A DNA stretch of 64,000 nt, from assembly GCA_028714495.1 (NCBI GenBank), contig JAQTMH010000003.1, positions 72,496 through 136,495 of the forward strand, written 5' to 3'. How positions within the stretch are numbered: position 1 is the first letter of the stretch; every line of letters starts with the position of its first letter. Under the pieces are notes generated by a model. That model did not search any database. It worked only from the letters and a program-made list of their open reading frames with translations, and was not told the DNA's origin. Positions 7,537 to 56,486 of the stretch are shown here, piece by piece. The stretch is from Patescibacteria group bacterium (lineage in GTDB: Bacteria > Patescibacteriota > Patescibacteriia > JAHIZJ01). The position numbers were made by a program, and so were the translations under genes.

Positions 7537-8754
7537 TTATTTTTTCCTGGCTTTAGTTTTGACCTTGGCTTTCTTATTTTTTTCTTGTGGCTGTTCTTTG
7601 TTTTTCCGTTGCTGCGCTATCTTCGTGAATTCTTCGGCGTAGACTTTGAGCGTTTCTTCGGCGCACTTACGCCAGCTGAATTTCTTAGCTTGAATTAAAC
7701 CGGCGGAAGACATTCGCTGGCGAAGCGAATCGGAACTTAAAACCTTTCTCATCGCCTCGGTCAATTCCCTCTCGTTTCGCGGATTGATCAGAAACGCGGC
7801 CTGGCCAGCCACTTCAGGGATCGATGCGACATTAGAAGTGATTACCGGCGTTCCCAGGCACATGGCTTCGAGCACCGGCAAGCCGAAACCTTCATAAAGC
7901 GTGGGAAAGACAAAAGCCGTGGCGTTCTTGATCAAAGCCAGTTTATCCAGATGCGGAATGTAGTTTAAGTAAGCCACTTGGTTGGTCAGCCCAAGCTCCT
8001 TTATCTTTTTGAATATCAGATCGCTCTGCCAGCCGCGGTGTCCGGCCAAAACCAGCTTGTATTTGGCCAGATGTTTCTGCCGAGCTATTAGATTATGGTA
8101 GGCCGACACCAACCTGACCAAATTCTTTCGCGGCTCCAGCGTACCGACATAAAGCAAATACTGGCCAGGCAAACCGTATTTTTTACCCAAGCCTTTTGCG
8201 TCGCCTGGGCATTTCTCCAATTTCATGCCCTCGTGGATAACCTTAATTTTTCCTTCGGGGATCTTGAAAATCTTTACAATGTCATTTTTCGTCGCCTGCG
8301 ACACTCCGATAATCCGCCTGGCTCGCTGCAAACTATGCGGCACTAAAATCGAAACGCTGAATTTCTGGCCGCGCGGAAACCATTCAGGGTGACGATAGAT
8401 TGCCAGATCGTGGACTGTCACGATGCTGGGACGGCTGTAGGTGTAGGGGATGACATTGGCCGGCGAATGGAAGATATCCAATTTCTCACGATTAAGAAAC
8501 GCCGTAATCAGCATATGCGAATAGCTGAAGGGAAGAAATTTCTTATACTGGGAAAACGGGAAATATCTGATTTTCACGTTCCGCTGCTGAAACTCTCGCG
8601 GATCTTTAAAACGGTAATCGAAAAACAAAACGTATTCGTTTTTTTTATCCAGGGCCAGCAGATTTTTTACCAGGTAATAGGAATAATGCCCAACGCCGGC
8701 CCTTTCGCCGGTCTTGGGATTTAAAATTGTTCGGCAATCAATTCCAATTCGCAT
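7537..8754 (-). CDS. Glycosyltransferase family 4 (GT-B) with a Lys-rich C-terminal tail
   Basis: [18 protein letters not shown] signature. 405 aa. Confidence 0.8.
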
Positions 8755-11246: not shown

Positions 11247-11636
11247 GGGGATGTCCAACATCGACGGGTAGCCCATTCAAAAACCGGCCAATCAGAGCTC
11301 CAGAACTCTGTCAAAATCTGGAAAAACGACAAATGCCAAGTCGACTTTCGCTAAACTGAAGAATGCTTTCGCATCATTCAGTTTTGCGCCCGCTGTTGCC
11401 TAATAATCAACAGCCATCCGTTCTCTTGACTCCTGATAGGGAGATAACGGGTGTCAAATTATCAGGACGGACGATTTATCCGTTTCAGTAAGTCGTTATC
11501 GGGCTATGAAGCTAGAATGAAGAGGGCTTTTGTCTGTCTTGACCCTTTTCATTCGAATCAATCGAGATAGACTATGTTGGTAGAAGGTTTTTGGAAAACT
11601 ATCCAGACAGGGGTGAAAGGCCCCTCATCTCCACCA
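11247..11636 (+). ncRNA. ssrA: tmRNA (ssrA), one-piece
   Basis: Begins GGGGAUGUCCAACAUCGACGGG (compare E. coli GGGGCUGAUUCUGGAUUCGACGGG). The acceptor stem GGGGAUG pairs with CAUCUCC, giving the G3:U wobble, and the RNA ends CCACCA at 11631-11636. A T-arm-like AGGGG-UGAAAGG-CCCCU is present. A candidate tag reading frame ends ...FAPAVA then UAA UAA at 11401-11406. Located 6 nt after smpB. Confidence 0.75.
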
Positions 11637-11737
11637 TGTACCACTCACAGAGTTTACCCCGATGTCTATCGGGGCTCGGGTACATGGCGGCTAGTGGAAT
11701 AAATTGCTCAAATCACTAACCATTAACTTCATAAGAA

Positions 11738-29637: not shown

Positions 29638-29716
29638 ATGGGGGGCCGGACGGGAATCGAACCCGCGACCTCTTGATCCACAGTCAAGCGCTCTGACCAA
29701 CTGAGCTACCGACCCC
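29638..29716 (-). tRNA. tRNA-His (anticodon GUG) with genomically encoded G-1, C73 and CCA
   Basis: GGGGGUCGGUAGCUCAGUUGGUCAGAGCGCUUGACUGUGGAUCAAGAGGUCGCGGGUUCGAUUCCCGUCCGGCCCCCCA. Cloverleaf checked by hand. G-1:C73. Confidence 0.9.
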
Positions 29717-29736
29717 CAACACCACGAAGAGCCAAA

Positions 29737-29812
29737 AGACTGGGGCGAGACGGGAATCGAACCCGCGACCTCTTGATCCACAGTCAAGCGCTCTGACCAA
29801 CTGAGCTACTCG
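29737..29812 (-). tRNA. Second tRNA with a GUG anticodon. Its 60-nt core is identical to tRNA-His but the acceptor stem differs (GGGCGAG/CUCGCCC). It keeps C73 but has C at -1 and no encoded CCA.
   Basis: CGGGCGAGUAGCUCAG...GGUUCGAUUCCCGUCUCGCCC-C. The interior is identical to the upstream tRNA-His. Confidence 0.7.
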
Positions 29813-29858
29813 CCCGTTTTCCCGGCCTGAGTTTGTAACAGACCGGGAACTTGTGCAC

Positions 29859-55568: not shown

Positions 55569-55611
55569 AAATTAAAGCGTCTTAAGAAAACCTGTAAGCC
55601 GAATTCTGTCC

Positions 55612-55725
55612 CTGAACCACTCACTTCGCTTCGCGAAGCTCGGGTTCAGGGCTCTGCCCATTAAATATAGTGGGCAAGGCCCTGAATCCCGAGCGACGCA
55701 CCGCGGAGCGAGTGGTTCAGAGGAT
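55612..55725. repeat. Copy A of a roughly 113-bp repeat with 18-nt inverted arms, located inside rnpB
   Basis: cctgaaccactcacttcgcttcgcgaagctcgggttcagggc...cgcaccgcggagcgagtggttcag. About 85-90% identical to the copy at 56215-56328. Confidence 0.9.
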
Positions 55726-56214
55726 GACCATCTATCTAGTCCTGACGTTGCCGTCAGGCTCAAGCAACCTACCCGCCCCGTACCGATCCTAATGGGTCTG
55801 GTACAGGGCCTATTCGGTCTTGCACCTGGCAGGGTTTTTCACGCCAGGCCATTGCTGGCTCAGCCTGTGGGCTTTTACTTTTGCCCAACACCCTTTCGGA
55901 TATTGAGTTTATTCCACACAAAGGTGGACCCACTCTTTTCACCCTTGCTTTTTGCCTGTTAAGTCATTAACAGGCCAATTAGCGGTTTTGTCTCTGTGAC
56001 ACTGTCCCTGGGCTTCTGAGAATCCAAAAAGTCTATAGCACTTTTTAAATCCTCCTTACTCCCGCCTTCATTTCGAAGGTGCCATTGTCCCGCCCACCTT
56101 TCCAGCCATGGTCAACGATAGACATTGGTCAAAGGCGAAGCCGCCTAGCGGCTAACGCATCAGTGAATAACAGCCATTGATAGAAAGGTGGGCGGGGGTG
56201 TTCGGACTTTCCTC

Positions 56215-56328
56215 CCTGAACCACTCACTTCGCTTCGCGAAGCTCGGGTTCAGGGCTCTACCCATATAAAGTTATGAGCAAAGCTCTGAATCCCGAACGA
56301 CGCACCGCGGAGCGAGTGGTTCAGAGCG
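56215..56328. repeat. Copy B of the roughly 113-bp repeat, at the P3 position of rnpB
   Basis: Same arms as copy A. The interior hairpin has diverged with partly compensatory changes. Confidence 0.9.
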
Positions 56329-56486
56329 GCCATCCGGTCTTCTTAAGACGCCTAAACCATAACGTAAAATCAATATTTTGTCAACCTCAATAAAATGGGG
56401 CGGAGTAAACCCCTTATTTTTTGCGTAGGTGATTTTTCTACCGCTACCCCTTACGCCTGGCCGATAGATTTAGGTGAGGAAAATAT

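Follow-up and report, generated by a model that had tools for sequence, protein, structure and literature searches.

How does an essential ribozyme come to carry one and the same long hairpin at two of its helices? The question is raised by a stretch of 64,000 nucleotides from a Patescibacteria group bacterium (GCA_028714495.1, contig JAQTMH010000003.1), referred to below as the window, in which the RNase P RNA gene rnpB contains two copies of a 114-nt module. The original prediction had read these copies as a duplicated, P3-like module of RNase P RNA itself. The module was found instead to be an inverted doublet, consisting of a ~33–44-nt palindromic unit, a ~26-nt spacer and the unit in reverse complement, and the unit recurs in helix 63 of a 23S rRNA and beside tRNA and transfer-messenger RNA (tmRNA) genes. 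What is new is where the duplicated module comes from: a family of palindromic units that is associated with stable-RNA genes and recurs in a helix of the 23S rRNA of another genome. On balance we lean towards reading the two copies as repeat-derived passenger expansions of a working type-A ribozyme, contributed by a palindromic element that would spread at the DNA level. The features from which the argument starts are listed here, R1 being a covariance model of the 114-nt module (R2, used further below, is a model of the unit alone).

Positions 55575 to 56352, minus strand: rnpB, a complete RNase P RNA gene of bacterial type A, ~778 nt (RF00010 match, and P1/P2/P4 alignment to loci L008, L003 and L117 of three relatives).
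Positions 56213 to 56326, minus strand: module copy A, a 114-nt rod in place of the whole of helix P3 (R1, 130 bits).
Positions 55609 to 55722, minus strand: module copy B, a 114-nt rod in place of the whole of helix P19 (R1, 138 bits).

The two copies were returned by a repeat search as a direct repeat of 114 nt with 90% identity, 604 nt from start to start, in good agreement with the repeat of ~113 bp, ~600 bp apart and 85–90% identical, that had been proposed. Pairwise alignment placed the 11 differences between the copies in the apical ~30 nt, the outer arms being near-identical (one difference, in the 5′ arm). Each copy alone folded into a near-continuous hairpin of ~50 bp, with energies of −79.3 and −85.0 kcal/mol and z scores of −11.0 and −12.6, and none of 200 shuffled sequences was equally stable. 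Where the differences touched base pairs they were one-sided G-U/G-C changes with no true double compensation, and the partly compensatory substitutions that had been claimed for the inner hairpin were thus not borne out. Pairing of copy A with copy B over long range was considered, and was not favored in the minimum free energy (MFE) or the centroid fold of the full-length RNA. A pattern search with up to 3 mismatches and a low-stringency BLAST search detected no further full copies of the module in the window. The open reading frames of the module, joined end to end, had no match in a protein database search even at E ≤ 10.

Alignment with the three relatives placed one copy at P3 and the other between P2′ and P4′, as had been predicted, and each copy is flanked by the correct, differing halves of P2 and P4. 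P3 measures 20 nt in L008, 27 nt in L003 and 27 nt in L117, and P19 measures 15 nt in L008, 24 nt in L117 and 79 nt in L003. The second site had been described as the J2/4 linker of 3–4 nt, but it is the position of P19, and a linker of that length applies only to RNAs that lack P19. RNase P RNA from E. coli is an example of an RNA without P19. The same is true of Thermotoga maritima RNase P RNA, while P19 is present in most lineages, has been inferred for the last universal common ancestor, varies in length over the phylogeny, has been lost repeatedly and forms a coaxial stack with P2 and P3 (PMC12974513). If P3, P2 and P19 stack in the window RNA as they do in solved structures, then the two rods would point in opposite directions from P2. 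The 79-nt P19 of L003 was considered as a decayed module; it scored 29.8 bits with R1 and contained no R2 unit, and Smith–Waterman comparison gave z = 3.3 against copy B and 0.4 against both copy A and the 23S rRNA copy described below, so that this relationship was treated as unproven.

The source of the module was sought by scanning species-representative genomes for an 18-mer common to both arms; 103 single hits resulted, roughly as many as chance would yield. Within these 103 loci a near-identical mini-hairpin, CCCTGAACC-ACTCGCTYCGCTCG-GGTTCAGGG(C), was present in 17, together with two near-variants. Across 16 aligned loci ~13 bases beyond the search pattern were almost invariant, and because these bases lay outside the pattern and had not been selected for, the family is regarded as real. 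The unit consensus is CCCUGAACC-ACUCGCUYCGCUCG-GGUUCAGGG. R1 also matched further pattern-hit loci, more weakly. With R2, every arm of the two rnpB modules, in which the unit measures ~43 nt, was matched, in opposite orientations and with an insert of ~10–11 nt in the loop of the unit, as follows.

Positions 56276 to 56330, minus strand: forward unit forming the 5′ arm of copy A, with a loop insert of ~11 nt (R2, 27.9 bits, E = 2e-5).
Positions 56210 to 56263, plus strand: opposite-strand unit forming the 3′ arm of copy A (R2, 37.7 bits, E = 3.5e-8).
Positions 55672 to 55726, minus strand: forward unit forming the 5′ arm of copy B (R2, 33.8 bits, E = 4e-7).
Positions 55606 to 55659, plus strand: opposite-strand unit forming the 3′ arm of copy B (R2, 40.2 bits, E = 7e-9).

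By their record labels, the loci carrying the unit belong to six Peribacteria, one Kerfeldbacteria, another Patescibacteria, two Omnitrophota, one Firestonebacteria, one gammaproteobacterial metagenome-assembled genome (MAG) and several high-GC soil MAGs. Outside the hairpin these loci have nothing in common, and no flanking gene is shared between them. No Rfam family covers the hairpin, no paper was returned by a full-text literature search for the unit sequence, and no match to the unit was found in annotated plasmids and phages. The loci labeled SMAG_U4510 (three loci) contain at least 6 units and those labeled ANGP1 several, while one unit per 8-kb locus is usual. In two loci (L036, positions 161–233; L069, positions 7615–7687) a unit sits within the loop of a second one, with CCCTGAACCACTCACTCCG and CTTCGTTCGGGTACAGGG enclosing CCCTGAACCCGCAGCGGTTCAGGG, which suggests that insertion of units into each other is possible and lengthens the hairpins. 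Read on the strand opposite to the forward unit, the apex of the loop is GCGAAGC (for example at window positions 55624–55637). This is the classic hyper-stable DNA mini-hairpin motif, a hint that the element might work in single-stranded form, as DNA.

Metagenomes were scanned with an invariant 20-mer of the module, and only two contigs were returned, one of them again the contig of the 23S rRNA copy (as L113). The other, L114 (Ga0209160_1019599, 64% GC, not of the candidate phyla radiation (CPR)), starts at positions 1–46 with CCTGAAC-TGCCCCT-GGTTCAGG-GCGAAGTGAGT-GGTTCAGGG, which includes the 20-mer. It presents a 42-nt palindrome cut by the contig end, scoring 24 bits with R2, and is probably a member of the unit family. 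In the viral contigs of IMG/VR the invariant 20-mer had no match; the 20-nt unit core ACCACTCGCTTCGCTCGGGT was present in three of these contigs, about the number expected by chance (L121, 11748–11780; L119, 13211–13230; L120, 1316–1335). The core in L121 is flanked by a different stem (GCTTAAC/GTTAGC), and those in L119 and L120 are without a clear stem.

When the whole module was compared by BLAST with the 103 loci, a full-length match was obtained in L095, from another Patescibacteria MAG (JBAZKN010000003.1). The match lies inside the 23S rRNA gene of that contig (1541–4455), and over the 14 kb compared there are no genes in common with the window. The similarity to the module is strong (Smith–Waterman z ~ 28, with none of 500 shuffles as good; R1, 91 bits), and the element folds into a like rod (z = −11.9). 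On the Rfam large-subunit rRNA model its basal 12 bp coincide with helix 63, the next hairpin after H62, and 91 nt replace a 3-nt loop. Alignment of L095 to what we take to be the E. coli 23S sequence gave helix 63 as well. Both L095 arms were matched by R2 (34–44 bits), and the L095 and rnpB doublets share the loop insert of ~10–11 nt in both of their units. Since this derived insert occurs in the rnpB and 23S copies alike, copying seems to have involved the doublet as a whole. The L095 23S rRNA also departs from the Rfam model by further insertions, including 58 and 71 nt in domain I, in keeping with the abundance of short insertions reported from CPR rRNA genes. In 23S genes of the CPR, short insertions of < 200 bp that are neither introns nor contain open reading frames occur commonly, and the proposal has been made that they are intervening sequences (IVSs) of the RNase III type (PMC11270868).

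Single units were also found at the ends of tRNA and tmRNA genes. One of them lies in the window, directly after the tmRNA gene (11247–11636).

Positions 11634 to 11687, plus strand: diverged unit directly after the tmRNA gene, made up of CCAUGUACCACUC, 29 nt and CUCGGGUACAUGG (R2, 15 bits, E = 0.07).

This unit was revealed by R2 alone, having been missed by both the pattern search and BLAST. Its stem begins at the terminal CCA of the tmRNA, it keeps the signature ACCACUC...CUCGGGU, and it shows two compensatory stem pairs relative to the consensus. The corresponding layout, in which CCA is followed at once by UG(U/A)ACCACUC...CUCGGGU(A/U)CAUGG, was observed after a tRNA-Gly (L053), a tRNA-Ser (L069), a tRNA in L036 and a tRNA-Glu (L025). 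In L025, L069 and L036 the tRNA is followed by a forward unit, a spacer of ~35 nt and a reverse unit, and in L086 the unit ends within the first three bases of a tRNA-Ala. Once the rnpB and 23S copies are set aside, 31 units remain, and 12 of these have a tRNA or tmRNA gene within 100 nt, compared with an expectation of 3.4% (binomial P ~ 2e-10, a value that is somewhat optimistic because L036 and L069 come from related genomes), and six of the 31 abut the gene end. In two Omnitrophota loci (L057, 1652–1787; L105, 6997–7132) the unit is ~130 nt from a cyclic di-GMP-I riboswitch, and therefore not all units are near tRNA genes. None of the five tRNA genes of the window has a unit. The tmRNA of the window has in addition an insertion of ~34 nt relative to Rfam (gcuaaacugaagaaugcuuucgcaucauucaguu), which forms a small hairpin at 11349–11385 on the plus strand, in or just after the tag-coding region.

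Whether both copies of the module exist in the genome was addressed by comparison with an independent MAG, GCA_028717285.1 (L002), which is 99% identical across the region and in which both copies were assembled through. Compared with the window sequence, its copy A differs by one substitution and its copy B by four others. Both copies are real and are no artefact of assembly, and the duplication that had been predicted thus stands. A Logan contig of the window's own strain (L001, SRR22315509_96070) ends inside copy A, at about window position 56230, as is expected where a genuine repeat disrupts the de Bruijn graph. The module repeat therefore fragments short-read assemblies inside an essential gene.

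The gene that accommodates the rods was matched by RF00010 (bacterial RNase P class A) in a permissive-threshold cmscan search, with 92.3 bits and E = 2e-28 at 55579–56100 on the minus strand. The gathering score of 100 bits is missed, and at the gathering threshold Rfam returns nothing at this place. The low score is a matter of alignment, as cmscan is unable to span the inserts and puts the 5′ end in the wrong place: P1–P4 are forced onto 56100–56040, and the true P1–P4 5′ strands lie beyond two large inserts. The alignment was excellent, with high posterior probability, from P10/11 through P18, and P2′ and P4′ were also well aligned. Positions 55579–56100 are the part matched by RF00010, and the extension to 56352 is based on the P1/P2/P4 alignment with the canonical rnpB of the relatives. 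The strands and domains so placed are these.

Positions 56336 to 56352, minus strand: P1 5′ strand GGCGUCUUAAGAAGACC, pairing with 55576–55592 (GGUUUUCUUAAGACGC), seen in the fold and with a compensatory U-A to C-G change relative to L008.
Positions 56328 to 56335, minus strand: P2 5′ strand GGAUGGCC, pairing with 55722–55729 (GGUCAUCC), from alignment with the relatives.
Positions 56203 to 56214, minus strand: P4 5′ strand GAGGAAAGUCCG, identical in the window, L002, L003, L008 and L117.
Positions 55595 to 55609, minus strand: J19/4 and P4 3′ strand ACAGAAUUCGGCUUA, kept in all relatives.
Positions 55730 to 56088, minus strand: specificity domain P7–P14 and P15–P18, with the P9 and P13 extensions typical of the clade (cmscan; 76% identity to L008 over 372 nt).
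Positions 56089 to 56196, minus strand: branched hairpin of 108 nt, an inverted repeat, occupying the P5.1 position on the border of the catalytic and specificity domains, with P5 and P7 on either side (this position has ~14–22 nt in relatives).
Positions 56356 to 56384, minus strand: sigma-70-type promoter TTGACA-17-TATGGT, with 10 of 12 consensus matches, directly upstream of the predicted rnpB 5′ end.

Both strands of the universal P4 pseudoknot, GAGGAAAGUCCG (56214–56203) and ACAGAAnnCGGCUUA (55609–55595), are present and are the same in L003, L008 and L117. The closing helices P1 and P2 showed covariation in a three-way alignment with relatives, P2 being GGCC/GGUC in the window and GGUU/GACC in L003, and P1 was also recovered in the fold. 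With a type-A specificity domain (P7–P11, P12, P13, P14) and P15–P18 likewise in place, every class-A structural feature that was looked for was found, and only the Rfam score cut-off was missed. Folding of the full 778 nt gave z = −13.4, and the MFE and centroid structures both contained P1, the two modules as local hairpins and the usual helices. These results agree with the assignment of rnpB to the minus strand, with drawable P1 and P2 helices and an RNA of ~780 nt, made in the original prediction. The expanded specificity domain that it also described proved to be mostly typical of the clade, as the P9 and P13 extensions are common to the window and its relatives; what sets this species apart is the hairpin at the P5.1 position, which the relatives lack. 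That hairpin (−53 kcal/mol, z = −6) was considered as kin of the 114-nt module, and this was ruled out by Smith–Waterman comparison, the sequences being unrelated.

The genomic setting of rnpB is conserved. The gene order in the window is RecJ, RNase HI, rnpB and a WbaP-type sugar transferase, and the terminator of RNase HI precedes the rnpB promoter. In the three relatives (L008, L003 and L117/L118) a canonical rnpB lies just upstream of the sugar-transferase gene; in L117/L118, where it was located through its P4 motifs, it lies directly between RNase HI and the sugar transferase, as in the window. The promoter motif TTGACAAAA...ACGGTATGGTAT is kept upstream of rnpB in L003, L008 and L117. 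The rnpB genes of L008 and L003 scored 183 and 171 bits with RF00010, over matches of 478 and 544 nt, and the window gene is ~1.5–2 times the size of those of its relatives. CPR RNase P RNAs often have large helix extensions and score below Rfam thresholds (PMC8172020).

The strain-level differences between the window and L002 were unevenly distributed. The three species-specific expansions had eight substitutions in 336 nt, against zero in the 442 nt of the core (Fisher p = 0.0012), and 11 were counted in the 134-nt upstream spacer. The absence of substitutions from the core points to strong purifying selection and therefore to an rnpB that is in use, and from this conservation the gene is predicted to encode a working RNase P RNA with catalytic activity on pre-tRNA. 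Several of the strain-level substitutions in the rods break predicted pairs, and the expansions, judged by their substitutions, appear weakly constrained. The basal 16 bp of the module never vary across the rnpB and 23S copies.

One interpretation of these data, and the one towards which we lean, is that a palindromic element has supplied passenger expansions to a functional ribozyme. The element would spread at the DNA level, in the way of palindromes of the repetitive extragenic palindromic (REP) type, of the REP-type inverted doublets known as REPINs or of miniature inverted-repeat transposable elements (MITEs), and would have landed in, or been copied between, the tips of rnpB helices P3 and P19. 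The rods would be co-transcribed from the rnpB promoter, would most likely be kept in the mature RNA and would be dispensable for catalysis. P3 and P19 would tolerate them because these helices are length-variable and coaxial at either end of P2, with the rods aimed away from the core. Several observations weigh against this interpretation. No transposase, target-site duplication or other signature of mobility was found in the flanks or in the window. The copy number is low, with 3 sites (five units) in the window and usually 1–6 in the fetched loci, unlike classical REP sequences and MITEs. The spread across phyla depends on the bin labels of MAGs, which are possibly wrong. Covariation in the rods is thin, with 3 pairs changed on both sides among five sequences, and the combination of near-identical arms with a differing spacer could mean selection or gene conversion, in which case the rods may not be purely neutral. 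A broader claim, possible but on the doubtful side, is that the unit represents an undescribed family of mobile or templated hairpins that targets stable-RNA genes across distant uncultivated lineages, the targets being tRNA and tmRNA genes at their CCA ends, and rRNA and RNase P RNA at the tips of surface helices.

It could be that the rods are not retained, and that RNase III excises both of them without religation to leave an RNase P RNA in three pieces (5′, ~25 nt plus a stub; middle, ~490 nt; 3′, ~35 nt plus a stub), which P1, P2, P4 and the helix stubs would keep together. Long near-perfect duplexes are the classical substrate of RNase III, and both rods fold as such. The homologous element sits at a helix tip in 23S rRNA, the faster, pair-breaking evolution of the rods would suit discarded sequence, and the short CPR 23S insertions have been proposed to be IVSs of this kind (PMC11270868). 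We nevertheless consider excision unlikely: the invariance of the basal 16 bp is not required by excision alone, no fragmented bacterial RNase P RNA was reported in the literature searched, and no RNase III gene was seen in the 64-kb window, from which nothing follows for the genome beyond it. The near-invariance of the core ACCACUCGCUYCGCUCGGGU and of the basal stem in very different genomes with unrelated flanks would be expected of a functional module, in which the unit is a site for a protein, or for the 3′-CCA end of an RNA, in the processing, quality control or localization of stable RNAs; the repeated start of the stem at the CCA end of tRNA and tmRNA, and the near-identity of the copy A and B arms beside a diverged spacer, would fit as well. 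This appears quite improbable, as the unit is missing from the rnpB of L003, L008 and L117 and is therefore not needed for RNase P function in the clade, no unit stands at any of the five tRNA genes of the window, strain-level substitutions break pairs of the rods and the distribution is sporadic. An origin within the gene would require no mobile element: an unusually long P3 (or P19) grew, and ectopic recombination or gene conversion then transferred a copy of it to the second helix. This would account for there being just two full copies in 64 kb and for their near-identical arms. It is made very improbable by the 23S helix 63 of a different genome, where the doublet is found with the ~10-nt insert in both units, and by the unit's presence at many unrelated loci, including the one after the window tmRNA gene; the unrelated flanks of the 23S and tRNA-flank copies also argue against their being contamination from this organism. 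Hardly any credence can be given to repeat mis-assembly as the source of one copy. Assemblers do struggle there, as the same-strain Logan contig ending in copy A indicates, but the copies are 90% identical with 11 copy-specific differences, the independent NCBI MAG spans both with further, differing substitutions, and the flanks are the correct P2 and P4 halves.

The proposed passenger expansions can be set beside several known systems. RNase P RNAs of the CPR, and of class A in general, have the same core (P1, P2, P4, P7–P14, P15–P18) and the same P3 and P19 positions; the window rnpB differs in carrying one sequence in both P3 and P19, and in sharing it with loci that are not RNase P genes. 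[quoted passage not shown] There too a genomic repeat family occupies a peripheral helix of a functional RNase P RNA, but the STRR sequences are short tandem heptamers at one site, whereas the window element is a 114-nt inverted doublet at two sites and is shared with 23S rRNA and with tRNA and tmRNA flanks. The IVSs of 23S rRNA resemble the rods in that a long stem–loop sporadically replaces the native helix tip of an essential RNA (P3 and P19 here, helix 63 in L095). They are defined, however, by RNase III excision and rRNA fragmentation. No report of an IVS family common to rRNA and RNase P RNA was found in the literature searched.

REP sequences, bacterial interspersed mosaic elements (BIMEs) and MITE-type palindromic repeats formed the remaining comparison class (PMC3733652, PMC3184786). 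With these and with REPINs the element has in common a short palindromic unit and the arrangement in spaced inverted doublets that fold as long hairpins; in each case the arms are better conserved than the spacer, and compound or nested copies occur. Unlike REP sequences and REPINs, the unit is of low copy number and near-identical across distant lineages rather than genus-specific, and it is located within stable-RNA genes or adjoining them, not generally in intergenic DNA, two of the window sites being within an RNA gene. The GTAG/CGTC tag that is a hallmark of REP sequences is not on the unit, and a crude regular-expression motif screen, uninformative for the genome as a whole, detected no REP-associated tyrosine transposase (RAYT; Y1/HUH) in the window. 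As in a MITE, terminal inverted repeats are present in the module, in the form of its inverted arms; inspection of the junctions revealed no direct duplication flanking copy A, copy B or the L095 copy. The element resembles both the 23S IVSs and the REP/REPIN doublets without being assignable to either class.

It is usual to ascribe the expansion segments seen in rRNA and in RNase P RNA, post hoc, to the 'accretion' of helices from an unknown source. In the case described here the source is identifiable, since one palindromic element supplies two expansions of an RNase P RNA and one of a 23S rRNA, while single units mark the ends of tRNA and tmRNA genes. This leads to a testable model in which essential structured RNAs grow as a spreading hairpin colonizes tolerant helix tips. 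If the family is indeed mobile and targets stable RNAs, it would provide a present-day mechanism for the accretion model, with expansion segments caught in the act of forming in two essential ribozymes. The window rnpB is at the same time a natural experiment on how much added duplex the RNase P core tolerates beside P4. The expansions account for the failure of standard Rfam annotation to report this rnpB, a matter of consequence where rnpB serves as a marker of CPR genome completeness, and they flag a repeat on which short-read assemblies of an essential gene can break.

Elsewhere in the window, two tandem tRNA genes were observed on the minus strand at 29642–29815. They are ~26 nt apart and very similar to each other, and the anticodon loop reads CUGUGGA in both alignments.

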